A stretch of DNA of 64,000 bases from an uncultured Alphaproteobacteria bacterium. GTDB taxonomy: Bacteria; Pseudomonadota; Alphaproteobacteria; Rs-D84. Where the stretch lies: NCBI GenBank assembly GCA_905234185.1, contig CAJOGC010000002.1, positions 103,949 to 167,948 on the forward strand, read 5' to 3'. Positions 11,279 to 39,890 of the stretch are shown here, piece by piece (position 1 is the stretch's first letter; each line of letters begins with the position of its first letter). A program made the position numbers and the translations under genes. The notes beneath the pieces are model-generated. The model was not told the origin of the DNA. It ran no database searches and saw only the letters and a list, made by a program, of their open reading frames with translations.

Positions 11279-12961
11279 ATGAAACAAAAGTCATACATTA
11301 TTGACGATAAACAACTGATGTCCGAATGGGACTGGGATGCCAATGTTGGTTTAGATCCGAAAACATTAACCCGTGGATCAAATAAAAAGGCATGGTGGGT
11401 ATGTTCGGTATGTGGGCATAAATGGTGTGCCGATATACATCATAGAGCCGTAAGAAAACAAGGTTGTTTAAACTGCCGATATGTATATAAAAAACAACTT
11501 GCTTCTATTTTGTCTGAAACACATCCAAAAGTCCTTAAATACTGGGATTTTTCAAAAAATAAATTGATAACCCCCGAAATTGTCAGCCAGAATTCGCGTA
11601 AAAGCGTTTGGTGGCATTGTCCAGATTGTGGCCATGAATGGGAAGAAAAAATAAAAAATCAGGTTAAAAAATTAGTTTGGTGCCCACATTGTAAGAAGGG
11701 AATTAAAGATTTGGCTTCTGTGGAACCAGAACTTGCAAAAGAATGGCATAAAACAAAAAATACTGATGCCCCAGAACATATTTCGTATGCTTCTAACAAA
11801 TATGCATGGTGGAAATGCCAAAAGTGTGGTTACGAATGGAAAGCCAGAATAGCCAACAGGTCAATATTGAAACGGGGGTGTCCTTGTTGTTCTGGTGGTG
11901 CGGTTGTCGTCGGAATAAACGATTTAAAAACAAAGTTTCCGCATATAGCAAAAGAATGGCACCCTACAAAAAACGGTGAACTTTTACCAGAACAAGTCAC
12001 TTCTGGTACAAGAAAGAAAGTTTGGTGGCAATGCCCACTGGGACACGAATACCAAGCAACGGTAGGACACAGGACATCACAAAATGGCACAGGGTGTCCA
12101 ATATGTTATTCAGGACGTCAAACATCATTCGCTGAACAGGCTGTATTCTTTTATGTAAAACAATTATATCCCGACGCACTAAGCAGGTATAAGGCAGACT
12201 TTTTGGGAAAATTTGAATTGGATATTTATATCCCATCAATCAAATATGCGATAGAATACGATGGTGAAGCATGGCATAAAGCGAATAAATTAGAACGCGA
12301 AAAACGAAAGTATCAATTGTGCAAACAGAACGGCATCACATTACTCAGATTACGAGAAAAGGAACCAGAACATGATGCTGAAGTGGCAGATGATATAATT
12401 TGTGTGAAAAATCTATACGAACACAGAAATCTTGAAATGGTATTAAGACGGTTATTGGTGAAATTGAACCCGCAATCGGTAATGCCTGACAACTTTGTTA
12501 ATTTGGCCAGGGATAATCATAAAATCTTGGAATATAAAAAATCGGCCATATCAGAATCATTGATGTCCGTCAGACCAGATATTGCGATGGAATGGCATCC
12601 AACAAAAAATGGTAACCTGTTACCAAGTATGTTTAAAGCAGGTTCTGAACATAAAGTATGGTGGATTTGTCCAAAGTGTGCCACCGAATATCAAACAAGT
12701 ATTGCTCATAGAACAGATAAAAAGGTTCCAACAGGATGCCCAAAGTGTGGCAAAGAGCGAAGTGACTTAGCGAAAAGTGTCGCTGTAAATATGTTAGATT
12801 TGAAAACGAAAAAAGTATTAAAAACATTCGTTTCTGTATCAGATGCATCAAGGCAAATGAAAATCAATTTATCTAACATATGTATGGCTTGCAAAGGCCA
12901 ACGCAACCAAGCTGGTGGGTACGGTTGGGAATATAATTTAAAAATATGCAAAAGAAAATAA
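11279..12961 (+). CDS. multi-zinc-ribbon protein with central DUF559/Vsr-like PD-(D/E)XK nuclease core and C-terminal NUMOD1-like HTH (homing-endonuclease-like)
   Basis: There are five repeats of [EW..KN...P + WW.C..CGH.W......R....CP.C]. The central block FELDIYIPSIKYAIEYDGEAWH...GITLLRLRE resembles the DUF559 core. The tail (FVSVSDASRQMKINLSNICMACKG..NQAGGYGWEY) resembles NUMOD1/IENR-type DNA-binding modules. Confidence 0.75.
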   Translation: MKQKSYIIDDKQLMSEWDWDANVGLDPKTLTRGSNKKAWWVCSVCGHKWCADIHHRAVRKQGCLNCRYVYKKQLASILSETHPKVLKYWDFSKNKLITPEIVSQNSRKSVWWHCPDCGHEWEEKIKNQVKKLVWCPHCKKGIKDLASVEPELAKEWHKTKNTDAPEHISYASNKYAWWKCQKCGYEWKARIANRSILKRGCPCCSGGAVVVGINDLKTKFPHIAKEWHPTKNGELLPEQVTSGTRKKVWWQCPLGHEYQATVGHRTSQNGTGCPICYSGRQTSFAEQAVFFYVKQLYPDALSRYKADFLGKFELDIYIPSIKYAIEYDGEAWHKANKLEREKRKYQLCKQNGITLLRLREKEPEHDAEVADDIICVKNLYEHRNLEMVLRRLLVKLNPQSVMPDNFVNLARDNHKILEYKKSAISESLMSVRPDIAMEWHPTKNGNLLPSMFKAGSEHKVWWICPKCATEYQTSIAHRTDKKVPTGCPKCGKERSDLAKSVAVNMLDLKTKKVLKTFVSVSDASRQMKINLSNICMACKGQRNQAGGYGWEYNLKICKRK

Positions 12962-16472: not shown

Positions 16473-16506
16473 AAAAAAAAACACCGGCAAACGCCGGTGT
16501 TTTTTT
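16473..16506. terminator. bidirectional terminator
   Basis: A9-CACCGGCaaaCGCCGGTG-T7. Confidence 0.7.
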
Positions 16507-16897
16507 ATTCCCAATAGTCATCATAATAATCCGTTTTGGTTGTTTTTTTCTTCATAACAGGGGTTGTTTTTTGTTTCGTTTTCTTCTTTTTTTCCGTATA
16601 TGCAAATTTCCATTGTTTATAACTTAATGGTGTTTTTCCTTGTTTATCACAATTTACTAAATATTTTCTGTATTTTTCTCGTTGATTTTTACGCTTTTTG
16701 TTTTCTTGTTTTCCATATTCTATACCAATAGATAGCATTGTTATTGCGAATATTACCGCAATATAACCAATAGATAATATTATCCAAAACAAAGAACGAA
16801 TGACAACATCATCTAAACTGGCAAAAGCAGGAAAAGAGCAAGTTAAAAATAAAGACACAAAAAAGATGATTTTTTTCATTTTCTTTTCCTCTTTCAT
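16505..16897 (-). CDS. small membrane protein with Lys-rich tail
   Basis: It has a signal-like N-terminus (MKKIIFFVSLFLTCSFPAFA), one further TM helix, and a strongly basic tail (KKRKNQREKYRK...KKKKTKQK...KKK). It overlaps the upstream gene by 4 nt. Confidence 0.55.
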   Translation of the reverse strand: MKEEKKMKKIIFFVSLFLTCSFPAFASLDDVVIRSLFWIILSIGYIAVIFAITMLSIGIEYGKQENKKRKNQREKYRKYLVNCDKQGKTPLSYKQWKFAYTEKKKKTKQKTTPVMKKKTTKTDYYDDYWE

Positions 16898-17169
16898 TCA
16901 TCTAATAGATCATTTAAAATCTCTATCGCCATTTTTCCGAATCTGGCGCCATTGAAAGAAACTTTATTACTTAATACATTTGCTTGCAGTTGATGTCTTA
17001 GAGCTCTGATACTGTCCTTGCTTGGGATAGTATTAAAATAATTGTTTATTATATAATTAAAGAATTCTTGACTTTGGGCATGTGTTATTTGGTTTGCCAC
17101 AAACCGTACGTTTGATTTACCGCCCATAGAAAAATAAATCCCTTTTACGATATCATCTAGTATGAACAT
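16894..17169 (-). CDS. hypothetical protein, 91 aa
   Basis: The start is moved to ATG 17169 (MFILDDIV), which has an AAGGGG RBS. The track start TTG 17214 lies inside the upstream terminator hairpin. Confidence 0.5.
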   Translation of the reverse strand: MFILDDIVKGIYFSMGGKSNVRFVANQITHAQSQEFFNYIINNYFNTIPSKDSIRALRHQLQANVLSNKVSFNGARFGKMAIEILNDLLDE

Positions 17170-17195: not shown

Positions 17196-17403
17196 AAAAA
17201 ACAAAACCGCCCAAGAAAGAGCGGTCGGGGAGTTAGAAAATCAGTTAAGTATGACTCCGCGGTCTTTAGATATACACACGCGGCTCCCCAACCATAGGTC
17301 AGGGATGATTACGGTGCAAAAACACCGAAACATCATTTTAACGATGCTTTCGCACCGACTTAACAGGACTTTCTACAGCCCGAACCCAATCTCTTGGATT
17401 CAT
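17196..17403 (-). ncRNA. candidate structured leader/attenuator RNA, copy A (unclassified)
   Basis: It starts downstream of a TTGCAA-16-TATAAT promoter and ends in a hairpin plus U-run just 5' of the RBS of the 16894 gene. It shares ordered conserved blocks and covarying helices with copy B at 26766..26982. Confidence 0.55.
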
Positions 17404-17408
17404 TTCTT

Positions 17409-17436
17409 ATTATACCTTATTTATGCCTAATTGCAA
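17409..17436 (-). promoter_or_regulatory. sigma70-like promoter of leader RNA A
   Basis: On the minus strand: TTGCAA (17436..17431), a 16-nt spacer, then TATAAT (17414..17409). Confidence 0.6.
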
Positions 17437-17449
17437 ACAGATTGATTTA

Positions 17450-17483
17450 TCATTGCGAGGGAGCATAGCGACCGCGGCAATCC
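17450..17483. repeat. short palindromic repeat (CATTGCGA...CAATCC type)
   Basis: tCATTGCGAGGGAGCATAGCGACCGCGGCAATCC. A related unit lies at 24971..25002. Confidence 0.6.
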
Positions 17484-17489
17484 ATAAAA

Positions 17490-17616
17490 ACTACCCCGCC
17501 ACTTCGTGACACCCCTTCGCTCGCGAAGGGGATTTTACTTTCTGGAATCATAGCATAAATCCCCTTCACTGTGTGAAGGGGTGGATTGCGAACGTTAGTG
17601 AGAAAGACGGGGTAGT
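17490..17616 (+). repeat. PAL-A palindromic element, copy 1 (~127 bp)
   Basis: The terminal inverted repeats are CTACCCCG...CGGGGTAG. The internal hairpins are CCCCTTC..GAAGGGG x2 and a central CTGGAATCAT. Related copies lie at 25701..25835 and 27027..27100. Confidence 0.8.
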
Positions 17617-17618
17617 CC

Positions 17619-17686
17619 CCTGCCCCCTTGTGGGGCGGGATAGATTTATTTACGAACAAAGTGAGTTAATAAATCTTGGGTGGGGG
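17619..17686 (+). repeat. PAL-B element arm (CCTGCCCCC...CTTGGGTGGGGG)
   Basis: It has the same conserved ends as 39430..39501. It forms an inverted pair with 17707..17786 across a 20-nt spacer. Confidence 0.8.
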
Positions 17687-17706
17687 AATTATAGGCGTTC
17701 TGTTTG

Positions 17707-17786
17707 CCCCCACCCAAGAGTCGCTAGTTCACATACGTTCACAAGCCGACTCTGTCCCGCCCCGCACGCTTTGCGCGGGGGCAGGT
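17707..17786 (-). repeat. PAL-B element arm, inverted orientation
   Basis: CCCCCACCCAAGAGTCGC...GACTCTGTCCCGCCCC...GCGCGGGGGCAGG. Its reverse complement aligns along nearly its whole length with 39430..39501. It abuts the pyrG stop codon. Confidence 0.8.
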
Positions 17787-17789
17787 CAA

Positions 17790-19364
17790 TTAATGCTTGT
17801 GTTTCTTTGCTGCGGCGATGAATGCGTTAAACATCGGGTGGCCGGTGTATGGGCTGCTTTGGAACTCTGGATGGAATTGTCCGGCAATAAAGAACGGATG
17901 GTTTTTCAATTCCACTATTTCCGGCAGGCGTCCGTCGGGACTGCGTCCCGAAATTATCATGCCCGCGTCCGCGAATTGCTTTTCGTATTCTATATTCATC
18001 TCGTACCGATGACGGTGCCGTTCCGAAATATGTTCCGCGCCCCAAATACTGTGCGCCAGTGTCCCCGGCGTAATGTCGCACGGATACGCGCCCAATCGCA
18101 ATGTTCCCCCCATATTTTTCGAATCGTGATCTGCCATAATGCCAATCACTGGGGTGCAATTCTTGTTAAACTCGGTCGAATCGGCATCCGCAATGCCCAA
18201 AACATTACGCGCAAATTCAATGACGGCAACCTGCATCCCCAGGCATATACCCATATATGGCACGCCGTTTTCACGCGCATAACCCGCCGCGGCAATTTTA
18301 CCCGCGACCCCGCGCGAACCGAACCCGCCGGGCACCAAGATTCCGTCAACATCGCTACACGTTTCCGGTGTGAATTCTTCGGCATTTATCTTTTTAATCT
18401 TTACATGCACATTGTTTTGGATGCCGGCGTGAAACAGTGCCTCGTTCAGCGATTTATACGCATCCGGCACATGAAAGTATTTTCCCACCATGCCGATTGT
18501 GACCGTCGGCAAATCCGCATCCAGGTAATGTTCAATCCGCCGAAACCTGTCCATATTGCCCGCGGCGTTTGGCAAACCAAAATGGTCGGCAATTATATCA
18601 AAGACATGTTGTGCGTCATATGCCAATGGAATCTTGTAAATATTATCAACATCAATGCCACTAATTACATTCTGCGCCGGCAAATTACAGAACATACCGA
18701 TTTTTGCGCGTTCATCCGGTTCCAACATGCGCGGTGTTCGCACGATTAGCATATCTGCCTGAATCCCGTTTTCAAGTAAGTTCCGCACCGACATTTGTGT
18801 TGGTTTTGTCTTTAATTCGCCACTTTTTTCCAAATATGGTGCCAATGTTAAATGAATAAACATAACATTGCGGCGACCAACATCGTTCGCAAATTGACGG
18901 ATTGATTCCAAAAATATCTTGCCCTCGATATCGCCCACCGTTCCGCCGATTTCACAGACAACGAAATCAGTATCGGTTGGTGCGGAAATATATTCTTTTA
19001 TCTTATTACTGACGTGCGGAATCATTTGCACTGTCGCGCCCAGATAATCGCCGCGTCGTTCCGCATTTAGAACATCCCAATATATGCGCCCACCAGACAC
19101 AGAATCGGCGCGACCCAATTTTGCACCCAAAAACCGTTCGTAATATCCCAGATCCAAGTCCGTTTCAAAACCGTCGTTTGTCACATAAACCTCGCCATGC
19201 TGAAACGGGGACATTGTGCCCGGGTCTATATTCAAATAAGGGTCAAATTTTCGCGCATGAACGGTATATCCGCGCGATTGTAAAAGGGCGCCACAACTTG
19301 CCGCCGCGACGCCCTTGCCTAAACTGGAAACCACACCACCGGTAATGAATATATATTTCGCCAT
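17790..19364 (-). CDS. pyrG: CTP synthase
   Basis: MAKYIFITGGVVSSLGKG and a C-terminal glutamine amidotransferase domain (GICLGMQ, HRHRYE) are present. Confidence 0.95.
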   Translation of the reverse strand: MAKYIFITGGVVSSLGKGVAAASCGALLQSRGYTVHARKFDPYLNIDPGTMSPFQHGEVYVTNDGFETDLDLGYYERFLGAKLGRADSVSGGRIYWDVLNAERRGDYLGATVQMIPHVSNKIKEYISAPTDTDFVVCEIGGTVGDIEGKIFLESIRQFANDVGRRNVMFIHLTLAPYLEKSGELKTKPTQMSVRNLLENGIQADMLIVRTPRMLEPDERAKIGMFCNLPAQNVISGIDVDNIYKIPLAYDAQHVFDIIADHFGLPNAAGNMDRFRRIEHYLDADLPTVTIGMVGKYFHVPDAYKSLNEALFHAGIQNNVHVKIKKINAEEFTPETCSDVDGILVPGGFGSRGVAGKIAAAGYARENGVPYMGICLGMQVAVIEFARNVLGIADADSTEFNKNCTPVIGIMADHDSKNMGGTLRLGAYPCDITPGTLAHSIWGAEHISERHRHRYEMNIEYEKQFADAGMIISGRSPDGRLPEIVELKNHPFFIAGQFHPEFQSSPYTGHPMFNAFIAAAKKHKH

Positions 19365-24863: not shown

Positions 24864-24871
24864 CCGCAATG

Positions 24872-25002
24872 TCATCCCCGCGCAGGCGGGGATCCACTGC
24901 GCCGCAGGCACTATAAATTTGTCACTGCGCGGCAATGGATACCGGCCTTCGCCGGTATGACCCAAAGAGTGGATTGTCATTGCGAACAATGCGAAACAAT
25001 CC
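24872..25002. repeat. cluster of short palindromic repeats
   Basis: Three hairpin units are present: GTCATCCCCGCGCAGGCGGGGATCC, ATACCGGCCTTCGCCGGTAT and GGATTGTCATTGCGAACAATGCGAAACAATCC. They are related to units at 17450 and 27105. Confidence 0.7.
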
Positions 25003-25621: not shown

Positions 25622-25700
25622 TTCGTGCTCCTTTACTTCTACGATTATAACAATATTTCGCACAACAGCAAATCTAAAAAACACCGACGCCCGCCGTCAC

Positions 25701-25835
25701 CACTACCCCGCCTCGTTCCACTCGGCACCCTTTCACTGGAGTGAAGGGGAATTAAATTATCTGGAATCATATACCAGGTAATAAAAAATCCCCTTCATTG
25801 TATGAAGGGGTGGACGCGTAGCGGACGGGGTAGTG
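25701..25835 (+). repeat. PAL-A palindromic element, copy 2
   Basis: CACTACCCCG...CGGGGTAGTG termini with internal CCCTTTCACTGGAGTGAAGGGG and CCCCTTCATTGTATGAAGGGG hairpins. Confidence 0.8.
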
Positions 25836-25883
25836 ATGAACCAGAGTGTAGCATTCCCCCTTTAACGAATACAACAAATTGGA

Positions 25884-26747
25884 TTATTCATCCACACCGT
25901 AAATAAAATCGCCTGTGCCGGAATTACCATAAAACTTCTGTCCAACAACATCCCACATGCCATTTGCCGGAACCGTATAATTACCAATCACCATACCGGC
26001 GGGGACCGGAATAAAGTGTCCCAACAAAGTATCACCATTATATATCACAACATCATACCAATTCATCGTTCGTGACCAATATTCATCCCACCACGAACCA
26101 AAAACAATTGTATCTTCACCAGTTGCGACATAATTAATATCAAATGTTTGTTTAGTTCGTTCTTTGAATTGTGCACATGTTAAATCAGGAAAAACACGTA
26201 ATAATCTTGGGGCCCTATTATTCAACGACACTATACCACTGCTATAAGTTATGTAATTTGTCCCCAAAACGTTAGGGAAGGCACTACTACTGGCAAAAAA
26301 CATTGCGCGGTCTTCATAGCCTCTTGGTGGCGTTTCTATGTGTCTGTATCCAACTGTAAAAACGACCCTGCTGGAATCCAACCAATTTACACCTGTATCT
26401 ATATTATTTAAATACCCGTTTGTTACATCGTTTTGTATTTTCAAATACACATCGTCGTCCGCACCAACCAGACAATCACCAACAAACCAATGATGCCCCA
26501 CGTGTGTCTTGGTGCCAATGCATGCACTGTATACAGCATTATCATACATAACATGCAATGTATTTGTCAGATTTTTTCGAACCATTGGTATATGATAAAC
26601 ACTGCCGTTATCGGTCATTATATTAAAAGATGGCATTCCGAACTTTTCAGCATGTGCCGGTATGGACGCATTACCAATGCGCAATGCATAGCCCCAACAA
26701 ATTGTTGGTGCCAATATCAATAAAAATATTACTAATATTTTTCTCAA
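25884..26747 (-). CDS. secreted hypothetical protein (~287 aa)
   Basis: A signal peptide is present (RKILVIFLLILAPTICWGYA). The start is uncertain: TTG 26747 is preferred because TTG 26768 lies in the U-run of the upstream terminator. The C-terminus ...GQKFYGNSGTGDFIYGVDE recalls beta-sandwich tail-fibre or lectin-like proteins, but only weakly. Confidence 0.6.
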   Translation of the reverse strand: MRKILVIFLLILAPTICWGYALRIGNASIPAHAEKFGMPSFNIMTDNGSVYHIPMVRKNLTNTLHVMYDNAVYSACIGTKTHVGHHWFVGDCLVGADDDVYLKIQNDVTNGYLNNIDTGVNWLDSSRVVFTVGYRHIETPPRGYEDRAMFFASSSAFPNVLGTNYITYSSGIVSLNNRAPRLLRVFPDLTCAQFKERTKQTFDINYVATGEDTIVFGSWWDEYWSRTMNWYDVVIYNGDTLLGHFIPVPAGMVIGNYTVPANGMWDVVGQKFYGNSGTGDFIYGVDE

Positions 26748-26765
26748 CCCCGAATTCCCCAACCG

Positions 26766-26982
26766 CAAAAAATAACCGTCAATCTGTGGACTGACGGTCG
26801 GGGTGTTCGAAAATCATATACAACAATGACCCTGTGATTTTTACACCACAGCACCCCGACCTTTTATATCGGGGTTTGGTAACGACACAAATGCGTATGA
26901 TTTCTTAAGCGATTACGGACGCACTTGCACCGGTTGTATATGGGCTTTCGACGGCCCCGAACCTGTGCCACCACAGATTCAT
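26766..26982 (-). ncRNA. candidate structured leader/attenuator RNA, copy B (unclassified)
   Basis: It lies downstream of a TTGCAT-18-TATAAT promoter. It ends in CCGTCA-gtccacagat-TGACGG + TTATTTTTT immediately 5' of the 25884 gene. Its blocks are conserved and its helices covary with copy A. Confidence 0.55.
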
Positions 26983-26987
26983 TTCTT

Positions 26988-27017
26988 ATTATAAAACATT
27001 TGGTATATTTTATGCAA
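26988..27017 (-). promoter_or_regulatory. sigma70-like promoter of leader RNA B
   Basis: On the minus strand: TTGCAT (27017..27012), an 18-nt spacer, then TATAAT (26993..26988). The 18 nt from the -10 box onward (TATAATAAGAAATGAATC) are identical to copy A. Confidence 0.6.
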
Positions 27018-27026
27018 TATTAAAAA

Positions 27027-27100
27027 CACTACCCCGTCACTTCGTGACACCCCTTCGCACGGCAAAGGGGATTTTTAGTATCTGGAATATGATTCCATAG
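27027..27100 (+). repeat. PAL-A element, truncated copy 3 (left half)
   Basis: CACTACCCCGTCACTTCGTGACACCCCTTCGCACGGCAAAGGGGATTTTTAGTATCTGGAAT... matches the left half of copies 1 and 2. Confidence 0.7.
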
Positions 27101-27104
27101 AACT

Positions 27105-27129
27105 GTCATCCCTGCGATGGATGGGAATT
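27105..27129. repeat. short palindromic repeat (GTCATCCC...GGGAAT type)
   Basis: GTCATCCCTGCGATGGATGGGAATT, related to 24872..24896. Confidence 0.6.
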
Positions 27130-27130
27130 A

Positions 27131-27176
27131 TTACTTTTTCAATTTATCGGTTATTTTATTACGCAGGATTCCCCAT
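27131..27176 (-). repeat. relic copy of the 3' end of the RND pump gene
   Basis: The minus strand reads ATGGGGAATCCTGCGTAATAAAATAACCGATAAATTGAAAAAGTAA. The true RND 3' end (27750..27712) reads ATGGAAAACCTGCGTAATAAAATAACAGGAAAGAAATAA, with an identical 18-nt core. Confidence 0.65.
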
Positions 27177-27251
27177 ACTGTTTGATAGATCTTGTGTAAG
27201 AGTATATGATGAATAACCCCATAAAAAATACCAGCATTTGCCGGTATTTTT

Positions 27252-27710
27252 TTATTTTTGTAATTCACGGCGGATGGCCATCAGGGTTTTTCCGATTCTG
27301 TTTTCGCCACTGCCGATTCCAAACCCACATTTATAGCAAACTGGGCATGCTTTTATCAAAATCGCATCGCCGGTACTTTTTAACAATTCTGCCGCGTCTG
27401 CATTTTGTTGAAACTTTGCATGCAATGCGTTTTCCATAATTTCAAATTTACGTTTATCAAAGTCCGCGCGACGATTGACTTTATATTCCGGTGTTTTTGT
27501 TATCAGACGGGCATCATCGGCATTTTTCATATTCAAAATCACATCAAAACGCGGGTCCGATGCGTAAAACTTCATTGCCTGGTAATAATGTTCCGCGGAC
27601 GGAAATACAAAATCGCGTCCATCAACATTCATTTTTATTGGGAACGATGCCAACGGTGATAAAAACCAGTATTCGCCCACTGGCGCACAAAATCGTATTT
27701 CCGTTGCCAT
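27252..27710 (-). CDS. NADAR (DUF1768/YbiA-like) family protein
   Basis: YWFLSPLASFP...FPSAEHYYQAMKF...KFEIMENALHAKFQQN...LLKSTGDAILI...GFGIGSGENRIGKTLMAIR fits the NADAR pattern. It starts 1 nt after the RND stop. Confidence 0.8.
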   Translation of the reverse strand: MATEIRFCAPVGEYWFLSPLASFPIKMNVDGRDFVFPSAEHYYQAMKFYASDPRFDVILNMKNADDARLITKTPEYKVNRRADFDKRKFEIMENALHAKFQQNADAAELLKSTGDAILIKACPVCYKCGFGIGSGENRIGKTLMAIRRELQK

Positions 27711-34358: not shown

Positions 34359-34368
34359 ATTGCCACAC

Positions 34369-34498
34369 GGTCCCATCGTTCCGTTCCCTCGCTCCGCTCG
34401 CCCGGAATGACAACGACGACGGGACGATAGACGGTCCCATCGTTCCGTTCCCTCGCTCCGCTCGCCCGGAATGACAACGACGACGGGACGACATAGAC
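34369..34498 (+). repeat. tandem 64/66-bp units: tRNA-Glu nt 1-11 + PAL-C palindromic element, x2
   Basis: Each unit is GGTCCCATCGT + TCCGTTCCCTCGCTCCGCTCGCCCGGAATGACAACGACGACGGGACG(A/ACA)TAGAC, at 34369..34432 and 34433..34498. The intact tRNA follows directly. Confidence 0.85.
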
Positions 34499-34573
34499 GG
34501 TCCCATCGTCTAGCGGTTAGGACATCGGATTCTCATTCCGGTAACATGGGTTCGATTCCCATTGGGACTGCCA
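34499..34573 (+). tRNA. tRNA-Glu (anticodon CTC)
   Basis: Manual cloverleaf: acceptor GGTCCCA/TGGGACT (G1-U72 wobble), D arm GTCT-AGCGGTTA-GGAC, anticodon arm TCGGA-TTCTCAT-TCCGG, T arm ATGGG-TTCGATT-CCCAT, and an encoded GCCA. Confidence 0.9.
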
Positions 34574-39429: not shown

Positions 39430-39501
39430 CCTGCCCCCATTTTGTGGGGCGGGACAGAGTCGGCTTATGAACGCAGTGAATTAGCGACTCTTGGGTGGGG
39501 G
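39430..39501 (+). repeat. PAL-B element arm flanking the DUF559 gene (left)
   Basis: CCTGCCCCCATTTTGTGGGGCGGGACAGAGTCGGCTTATGAACGCAGTGAATTAGCGACTCTTGGGTGGGGG. It ends 2 nt before the DUF559 stop codon. Confidence 0.8.
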
Positions 39502-39503
39502 CA

Positions 39504-39890
39504 TTATTTTCCCCATCGCGACACAAAAAATTCATTAAAATCCAAATGTTCGTTTATACACATGTGCAATGTATCAACAACCGTTTTCATACCTTGTTTC
39601 GTTAATTCTGCATTTGCAACACGAATAACTTTATAGCCCTGTGATTCTATAAACTCTGTGCGCTTGTTGTCGTATTCAATATTTTCTGCGTGTTGGTTGC
39701 CATCAAGTTCAATAACCAATTTCAATTCATTACACACAAAATCAACATAATATGGACCAAACGGTTGTTGCCGGCGGAACTTTACCCCCAGTTTGTTATT
39801 ATTAATTTGATACCAGAATTTGCGTTCTGGGTCAGACATATTTTTACGCAGGTTTTTTGCACGAATAATGTTTGCTGGGTGATTTGTCAT
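39504..39890 (-). CDS. DUF559 (Vsr-like PD-(D/E)XK) endonuclease-domain protein
   Basis: AKNLRKNMSDPERKFWYQI...KFRRQQPFGPYYVDFVCNELKLVIELDGNQH...YDNKRTEFIESQGYKVIRV is the typical DUF559 sequence. Confidence 0.8.
   Translation of the reverse strand: MTNHPANIIRAKNLRKNMSDPERKFWYQINNNKLGVKFRRQQPFGPYYVDFVCNELKLVIELDGNQHAENIEYDNKRTEFIESQGYKVIRVANAELTKQGMKTVVDTLHMCINEHLDFNEFFVSRWGK

Follow-up and report, generated by a model that had tools for sequence, protein, structure and literature searches.

Are a promoter, a structured leader RNA, a gene for a secreted protein and the palindromic repeats on either side of them parts of one mobile module, or do the leader with its gene and the repeats have separate histories? 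The question is raised by positions 25,701 to 27,135 of a 64,000 nucleotide stretch of DNA, which as a whole we call the window, from contig CAJOGC010000002.1 of an uncultured alphaproteobacterium of the Rs-D84 lineage. A first-pass annotation had seen here a modular, possibly mobile or recombination-shuffled cassette to which the palindrome, termed PAL-A, belongs. We come to a different view. In our opinion the locus is rather probably an accessory single-gene unit controlled by a new cis-acting leader of about 215 nt, similar to an attenuator or riboswitch, and PAL-A is independent of this unit. What is new here is a structured leader RNA family with, plausibly, a terminator/anti-terminator switch. 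Judged by its content alone, the assignment of the window to Rs-D84 is indirect: it encodes GapR, the relatives of its HAD gene are labelled as alphaproteobacterial metagenome-assembled genomes (MAGs), copies of the leader occur in Enterousia and termite-gut MAGs, and the sample names seem to refer to gut or rumen studies. The Rs-D84 lineage comprises uncultured gut bacteria whose genomes are smaller than 1 Mb and which are believed to need partner cells; little is known about their regulation (PMC12306168).

A family of structured leader RNAs

The window contains two leaders of this family, both on the minus strand. The unit in question consists of the following elements, given in the order of transcription.

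26988..27017, minus strand: sigma-70-type promoter of the unit, TTGCAT-18-TATAAT (sequence reading)
26770..26984, minus strand: leader RNA B, about 215 nt, helices P1 to P6 and terminator (fold z = -7.2; seed of the covariance model R1)
26774..26799, minus strand: intrinsic terminator of leader B, GACCGTCAGTC-CACA-GATTGACGGTT then ATTTTTT (terminator scan; helix 9 of the alignment)
25884..26747, minus strand: cargo gene with TTG start, 287 amino acids (protein P0001), signal peptide MRKILVIFLLILAPTICWGYA (list of open reading frames)

The second unit is built in the same order.

17409..17436, minus strand: promoter of leader A, TTGCAA-16-TATAAT
17201..17405, minus strand: leader RNA A, second family member in the window (fold z = -8.5; 77.7 bits with R1)
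16505..17169, minus strand: cargo of leader A, a 91-aa orphan open reading frame (17169-16894) and a 124-aa protein (16879-16505)

The 124-aa protein has a signal peptide and a transmembrane segment, and a terminator is found at 16475-16505. Promoter, leader and secreted protein gene of the first unit are all present where the first-pass annotation had placed them, between the HAD gene and the efflux operon, as judged from the open reading frames (ORFs) and from Pfam, which recognizes HAD (PF12710), NADAR, AcrB and RmuC among the neighbors. Both leaders start with the identical 18-mer TATAATAAGAAATGAATC, and each of the two leader motifs occurs twice in the window whereas only 0.03 to 0.2 occurrences are expected by chance. 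At the matching position the promoter is conserved in three further stretches, L010, L009 and L067. A simple promoter scan omits TTGCAT-18-TATAAT, as its -35 box agrees with TTGACA at only three of six positions.

The leader of about 215 nt is a real conserved structured RNA family without a match in Rfam 15. It folds into a 5′ hairpin (P1) and two long-range helices (P2 and P3), which close a junction with the hairpins P4, P5 and P6, and the terminator follows. Both window leaders share this one fold, which is far better than that of shuffled sequence (z values above). With three leader sequences RNAalifold picked the alternative fold described below, and MAFFT alignments mis-paired the helices. 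We therefore used a covariance model built from the single sequence of leader B, termed R1, for all leader searches and aligned the sequences with the help of the model. R1 probably misses divergent leaders. After an 11-sequence version we analyzed an alignment of 18 distinct sequences, in which 94.4% of the cells are paired and 63 of the 72 pairs show compensatory changes. Only 38–46% remained paired when the partners were slid by one to three columns, and none of 500 shuffles reached the observed values. The hairpin with its U-run is retained in 17 of these 18 leaders. Between leader A and its close orthologue in L143, compensatory changes are seen in P3 and P6.

There are 20 clear copies of the leader in gut alphaproteobacterial (Rs-D84/Enterousia-like) sequences. 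R1 finds a leader directly 5′ of every homologue of the 287-aa cargo examined, with 32–172 bits against a noise of at most 31 bits. Beyond this cargo family it matches a Candidatus Enterousia MAG (L067) and a termite-gut "Rickettsiales" MAG (L100), in which two copies lie beside a virB11-like gene. Nine of the 12 metagenome contigs which matched a degenerate DNA pattern were confirmed by R1. The other three (L130, L132 and L133) are false positives; these matches are inside coding sequence and have no R1 match. No leader was found in the viral contigs scanned.

The search of Rfam 15 with the leaders gave no family at its gathering score. The window leaders have a sub-threshold similarity to sRNA-Xcc1 (26.9 and 28.8 bits, gathering score 53), which could not be reproduced on seven other leaders within E <= 1, and we reject homology to this RNA. 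We also reject a leader peptide: the 5′ AUG is not conserved, as other members have GUG, UUG or CGG instead, and what the sequence changes follow is the base-pairing and not the codons. In L131 a palindromic element (1387-1529) is located about 60 nt 5′ of the leader; it has a sub-threshold match to the Wolbachia small RNA WsnRNA46 on both strands (45 bits, gathering score 65.3).

A possible terminator/anti-terminator switch

The leader combines a covarying structured domain with a position on the same strand, 5′ of the gene, and an expression platform, as is typical for attenuators. A clue to how it could work comes from the segment between P2 and the terminator, which we call S4. S4 repeats the sequence of the P5 5′ arm and changes along with the two P5 arms: the window has CACCCCGACC here, a second subgroup has CUCCAACC and a third CCUGACC. 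For the P5 3′ arm, GGUCGGGGUG, there are thus two possible partners, its own 5′ arm and S4. This alternative helix is 92% paired with four covarying pairs, compared with 35–57% paired in slid controls. The last four bases of S4, GACC, double as the bottom 4 bp of the terminator stem (helix 9).

We propose the following scheme. The leader would be transcribed from its own sigma-70-type promoter towards the intrinsic terminator, a few nucleotides before the ribosome-binding site. Because the terminator precedes this site, the downstream gene would be made only on read-through. In the OFF state the fully folded junction would keep the terminator intact, and this state is the thermodynamic default. 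In the ON state the pairing of the P5 3′ arm with S4 would use up the four basal pairs of the terminator stem; a 7-bp stem would remain, set apart from the U-tract, which could permit read-through. The balance might be shifted by some signal, be it a small ligand, a protein or another RNA. Since the terminator-intact fold is favored by 6–20 kcal/mol over the alternative one in every member, the switch would be OFF by default and would need a factor to reach the alternative fold.

The genes behind the leader

Every clear leader is on the same strand as an ORF and directly 5′ of it, the gap being 1–50 nt and in a few cases up to about 150 nt. Among the copies found there is none without a downstream ORF. 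The products belong to at least seven families without mutual similarity, most of them secreted or membrane proteins: lectin-fold proteins of 287–335 aa, Cys-rich secreted proteins of 145–344 aa, a 318-aa protein with signal peptide, a 250-aa protein with Listeria-Bacteroides-type repeats, a lipoprotein, small two-helix membrane proteins and the orphan pair of 91 and 124 aa from the second unit of the window. Apart from one small helix-turn-helix (HTH) protein, to which we return below, nearly all cargo begins with a signal peptide or a membrane segment.

Being placed before many unrelated genes, most of which encode secreted proteins, lipoproteins or small membrane proteins, the leader probably co-ordinates a set of surface and secreted proteins. 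Its position points to a dedicated RNA control of those proteins which are the likeliest to be in contact with a partner or host. The leader is a candidate of the orphan riboswitch type, and with the covariance model the regulon could be listed in any genome of the lineage. One might go further and imagine a new riboswitch class or a factor-dependent antiterminator that senses a metabolite, a second messenger or a cue from the partner and by terminator read-through co-ordinates the whole secreted and surface repertoire of Rs-D84, that is, lectin-fold binding proteins, Cys-rich secreted proteins, lipoproteins and small membrane proteins. The conserved sequence would then also serve as a portable homology block which recruits new cargo. 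We offer this extended idea tentatively and regard it as possible though somewhat doubtful.

Small Cys-rich ORFs (87–106 aa; mutual E = 2e-5) are located directly 5′ of leader units in two different contexts and may encode an associated factor.

L003, 9472-9735: small Cys-rich ORF
L004, 6413-6691: small Cys-rich ORF
L011, 413-733: small Cys-rich ORF

The 287-aa cargo protein

The protein encoded behind leader B is conserved in its N-terminal domain and at its C-terminus and variable in between. By eye, its N-terminus MRKILVIFLLILAPTICWGYA follows the n-h-c pattern of a Sec signal peptide, and in the structural model it forms a helix. AlphaFold2 gave a pLDDT of only 39.6 with an alignment of nine sequences and a usable model with 44 sequences from an exhaustive profile search. 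The model has a jelly-roll fold like that of LamG, pentraxin or concanavalin with a swapped middle region. Residues ~100–287 constitute a domain of about 190 aa which the exhaustive profile search detects in 6,317 representative proteins (E < 1e-3). Proteins of 1,000–2,500 aa, some with Flg_new repeats, contain as many as nine of these LamG-like domains in tandem, and many of the relatives P0133 to P0275 are giant multi-repeat proteins. No model in Pfam covers the domain. Sequence searches of Pfam, PHROGs and PDB with the cargo gave nothing significant, and Foldseek with the cargo model against PDB nothing below E = 0.1.

With its lectin-type fold and its signal peptide the cargo, as modelled, looks like a secreted concanavalin/LamG-like binding protein with a variable face. 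An effector-like function, which the first-pass annotation had considered in view of type IV secretion genes, probably is the wrong reading. Type IV effectors are cytoplasmic substrates with a secretion signal at the C-terminus or internally and normally without Sec signal peptide, whereas the cargo combines a signal peptide of the Sec type with a lectin fold like that of LamG or pentraxin. The window does encode TrbI/VirB10, but nothing ties this gene to the cargo.

An accessory unit with a mosaic gene

The leader–cargo unit is accessory. A search for relatives of the HAD gene yielded many close ones. One relative, with an 88% identical HAD, has the arrangement AcrB-NADAR-PNP_UDP_1-HAD, the gaps being 57 and 13 nt, and in another with an 81% identical HAD this gene follows AcrB after 13 nt; the contig of the latter carries a cargo homologue elsewhere. 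As the sites of the relatives are empty or otherwise filled, the unit together with its flanking repeats and the new HAD promoter is specific to this genome at this site. A presence that varies between relatives, for which the first-pass annotation had advised to look, is therefore confirmed.

A word-indexed search grouped the cargo family into 11 clusters. In every contig examined the homologues sit between different housekeeping genes with a leader in front of each. With x for the cargo, the contexts are NADAR-x-HAD in the window, RNase HII-x-GIY-YIG, KAS-x-AMP-ligase, RuvX-x-AI-2E, FtsH-x and x-CDP-alcohol phosphatidyltransferase. The DNA similarity between units reaches from about 10 nt upstream of the -35 box to the stop codon. 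In the cargo gene conservation is confined to the 5′ third and the final 130 nt, the latter being 94% identical to L006 and L009; the middle is unalignable. This mosaic suggests recombination between copies. L006 and L009 have a near-identical PAL-containing 3′ flank despite different upstream genes.

The PAL-A palindromes

Besides the two leaders, the 64 kb contain only three copies of PAL-A, one of them partial.

25701..25835, no strand: full PAL-A, 135 nt, two inverted halves of about 45 nt around a central hairpin, 48 nt past the cargo ORF
25790..25810, minus strand (cargo sense): terminator-like hairpin inside this PAL-A, CCCCTTCATACAATGAAGGGG then ATTTTTTATT, 74 nt past the cargo stop codon
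27024..27135, no strand: half PAL-A fused to a small GGGATGACAG/CCCTGC palindrome (composite repeat; repeat family D9, 84% identical to 17486-17536)
17486..17616, no strand: full PAL-A 5′ of the unit of leader A, at about 50 nt from its -35 box

The complete copy at 25701 has 12-nt terminal inverted repeats, CACTACCCCGCC and GACGGGGTAGTG, and repeats of 11–12 nt also delimit the copy at 17486/17616; both elements are as the first-pass annotation had described them, including the position of the latter upstream of the second leader cassette. What it took for a truncated copy from 27027 on is a partial copy indeed. It is, however, not a plain truncation, since it belongs to a recurring composite which extends to 27135. 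Its half PAL-A consists of the terminal repeat CACTACCCCGTC at 27027-27038 and the hairpin CCCCTTCGCACGGCAAAGGGG. The composite abuts the promoter of the cargo unit at a distance of 9 nt from the -35 box, and the same fusion of half PAL and GGGATGACAG is found 3′ of the homologous cargo genes in L006 and L009. That the copies have the same orientation, as was also pointed out, says little because PAL-A is a palindrome; its matches are direct and inverted alike (repeat families D9, D14, I2 and I18). The terminal 11-mer ACTACCCCGYC occurs six times in the window (0.8 expected by chance). A PAL element ends in GGGGTAGT and has a GTAG motif beside its hairpin. The first hairpin varies between copies yet stays palindromic (GACCTTCGGTC, CGCTTCGCG, GTCACTTCGTGAC and others). 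Full elements span 61–231 nt and consist of two inverted halves and a variable center.

We scanned species-representative genomes with a core pattern built from the PAL half, namely ACTACCCYGYC, a short variable hairpin and then CACCCCTTC-loop-RAAGGGG. The 45-nt core is present in at least 115 stretches (L012 to L126) from many phyla. The hosts include the isolates Caedibacter taeniospiralis and Francisella as well as Rickettsiales and other alphaproteobacterial MAGs, Ignavibacteria, Kapaibacterium, Deferribacteraceae, Bacteroidota, Polaromonas, Methylotenera, Saccharibacteria, Bacillota, Verrucomicrobiota and Spirochaetia. No protein family consistently adjoins PAL among the 115 loci, and a full-text literature search with PAL sequences returned chance matches only. 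For repeats resembling repetitive extragenic palindromes (REPs), a palindromic module of 45 nt that is near-unchanged across many phyla is unusual; a mobilizing enzyme common to the hosts or horizontal spread might account for it.

How closely are PAL and leader associated? When the 115 PAL-containing pieces were searched for the leader, it was clear in L067 and L100 and weak in L118, and one more weak match (L076) came from 12 PAL loci of gut alphaproteobacteria that were searched without filters. Seen from the side of the leader, PAL is missing from the available flanks of 11 of the 21 units, among them L010, whose leader is the closest to leader B. In the genomes scanned, which do not include that of the window, PAL copies are thus distributed independently of the leader, the very result by which the first-pass annotation had proposed to refute its cassette. 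Of the modular unit it had envisaged, promoter, leader and accessory cargo, which recur with varied cargo, remain; PAL-A is neither a component nor a boundary.

Where PAL is present it is usually found shortly past the cargo stop codon, about 80–500 nt 3′ of the cargo in the window unit B, L006, L009, L067 and perhaps L127. Inside PAL-A, CCCCTTCATACAATGAAGGGG followed by ATTTTTTATT is a textbook intrinsic terminator on the sense strand of the cargo. From its sequence the downstream PAL-A would thus supply the terminator of the cargo gene, and PAL-A would be at most an insulator here. Intergenic gaps of more than 120 nt number only 11 in the window and add up to 3.7 kb, of which the two leader units take up 28%. 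Because there are so few gaps, the clustering of the three PALs is only weakly surprising (about 0.02 for random placement in gaps), and near the leader units PAL is about as dense as in intergenic DNA generally. Neither of the two full copies has a visible target-site duplication (flanks GTCAC...ATGAA at 25701 and ATAAAA...CCCCTG at 17486). On either side, the homology that the units share ends before PAL is reached and so excludes it from the module. We conclude that PAL-A is an independent intergenic repeat, similar to REPs or miniature inverted-repeat transposable elements (MITEs), which accumulates in scarce spare DNA and can serve as a terminator.

Some observations on other repeats may be added. 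At the L143 site there is an orthologous, diverged PAL which matches 17486..17616. A second palindromic family (I3/I4) with arms that are 94–96% complementary is found at 17620-17790 and 39443-39510; its copy beside PyrG is absent from the orthologous L143 site and looks like a recent insertion. Small GTCATTCC-GCGCAGGC-GGAAT palindromes, distinct from PAL-A, occur at 24871-24961, 27100-27135 and 17446-17480 of the window. Palindromes of this type accompany PALs in L076, L107, L063 and L100 too, and L006 and L009 have them in their 3′ flanks; several repeat families therefore nest together. In L003 a gene for a 343-aa reverse transcriptase (RVT_1; 1041-2170) has the motif IGNLTSQ, typical of diversity-generating retroelements (DGRs), and a 95-nt PAL-like element begins at its stop codon.

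Alternative explanations

Several points weigh against an attenuator or riboswitch-like leader. The leader alignments were fitted to the structure of the model, and the paired percentages are inflated by this; the bias should be small, as the slid controls drop to 38–46%. The alternative helix is partly confounded since S4 resembles the 5′ arm of P5, and its covariation consists of few changes in related sequences. Given the large energy difference between the two folds, the alternative one may never form without a factor and the RNA may simply be a terminated small RNA; read-through, as deduced from the sequence, would be an assumption. The gene content of the leader units suggests no ligand, and secreted proteins are an unusual cargo for riboswitches. 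Finally, the ORF behind one divergent leader (L076, 2179-2544, minus strand, 26.9 bits) encodes a small XRE-like HTH protein and not a secreted one; this leader is also followed by several small palindromes and by half a PAL. The main competitor is a free-standing small RNA gene, trans-acting or a decoy, which merely tends to adjoin accessory genes. Such a gene would fit with the near-consensus promoter, the strong terminator and the terminator-intact fold as free-energy minimum, and also with the leader being about 88% identical (by eye) in the pair of window unit B and L010 when the cargo proteins share 42% identity. On the other hand, across unrelated cargo the RNA always lies on the same strand immediately 5′ of an ORF, the gap of 1–50 nt is too short for a separate promoter, a conserved alternative pairing overlaps the terminator stem and each copy found has an ORF behind it. 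In our view a small RNA gene of its own is therefore unlikely, and we prefer the cis-acting leader.

Could promoter, leader, cargo and PAL-A nevertheless form one mobile or recombination-shuffled module with the PAL-A copies as ends or recombination sites? All three copies in the 64 kb touch the two leader units, PAL follows the cargo in the four or five units named above, a half PAL lies 9 nt from a -35 box, the unit is absent at the same site in relatives, and L006 and L009 share their PAL-containing 3′ flank behind different upstream genes. This has to be set against a PAL core that occurs without the leader in many phyla, with 2–4 of 115 PAL pieces holding a leader, against the 11 of 21 units without PAL nearby and the homology that ends before PAL on both sides. 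Moreover, no target-site duplication is visible and no transposase or integrase gene adjoins, and near the units PAL is about as dense as in the intergenic gaps of the window. We judge a common module to be quite improbable. Still less do we believe that the leader is the guide or template RNA of a mobile element, such as an IS110 bridge RNA, a TnpB/IscB omega RNA, a retron msr-msd or a fragment of a group II intron. The units do lie in different housekeeping contexts of related genomes, and one related genome has a DGR-type reverse transcriptase. But the downstream proteins are mutually unrelated, mostly with signal peptides, none was matched by a recombinase, nuclease or reverse transcriptase model, and the window cargo has a lectin fold. 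Neither did the leader match an intron, retron or HEARO-type family in Rfam or occur in viral contigs. The absence of a nuclease or recombinase already largely refutes this possibility.

Other features of the window

The surroundings of the unit are completed by two elements.

27216..27254, no strand: bidirectional terminator (hairpin and T-run; member of repeat family D1) that closes the AcrB-NADAR operon, 5′ of the unit
25622..25700, minus strand: second hairpin and T-run (25699-25685), then the HAD promoter TTGCTG-16-TATAAT and an AAGGAG ribosome-binding site

The AcrB-NADAR operon is on the minus strand and its end is at 27252. Elsewhere, an exact 64-nt tandem duplication (D5; 34367-34491) ends 7 nt before the gene for tRNA-Glu (34499-34573), and at 11279-12961 a 560-aa protein is encoded with five DUF4379 treble-clef zinc-finger repeats and a DUF2726 domain; this gene holds the direct repeats D4.

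Comparison with known systems

PAL-A resembles REP/BIME/REPIN, Correia and Rickettsia palindromic elements in its general features, that is, as a short intergenic palindrome with inverted halves. The GTAG motif beside a covarying hairpin stem and the inverted doublets are characteristic of REPs and REPINs, and PAL-A shares with REPs the multiple copies per genome, the frequent position just past genes and the terminator-like hairpins. Unlike the species-specific REPs, its 45-nt core is near-identical across many phyla, and neither a RAYT nor another transposase was found next to the PAL copies at the 115 loci. Of the features of MITEs it has terminal inverted repeats and lacks a target-site duplication. 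The unit recalls integron cassettes because it has a single promoter-proximal accessory ORF, flanking imperfect palindromes and a presence that varies between relatives. In contrast to such cassettes, the ends of PAL-A (CACTACCCCGYC and GRCGGGGTAGTG) have no attC core sites (RYYYAAC/GTTRRRY), the unit has its own promoter and the units are single and scattered instead of arrayed. Among the neighboring genes scanned (AcrB, NADAR, HAD and RmuC) there is no integrase.

The cargo is comparable to LamG, pentraxin and concanavalin-A-like lectin domains and to receptor-binding proteins of phages. For the leader, one possible comparison is sRNA-Xcc1 (RF02221), an integron-associated small RNA of Xanthomonas. 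The 3′ third of the window leaders, in the alternative fold, likewise has a G/C-rich closing stem around two hairpins. However, the match covers only about 75 of the 215 nt, and the leader has no integron context.

The likeness to riboswitches and attenuators goes further. As in these, the leader has its own promoter, a covarying multi-helix domain, an intrinsic terminator directly 5′ of the ORF and, as a candidate, a mutually exclusive helix that would overlap the terminator, and several copies per genome precede different genes. It differs from riboswitches in having no sequence or structure match in Rfam 15, a cargo almost entirely of secreted and membrane proteins and an alternative fold much less stable than the default; with about 215 nt and five helices it is also larger than most aptamers. 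The closest comparison is with the c-di-GMP-I and c-di-GMP-II riboswitches, which control genes for adhesins, pili and secreted proteins.

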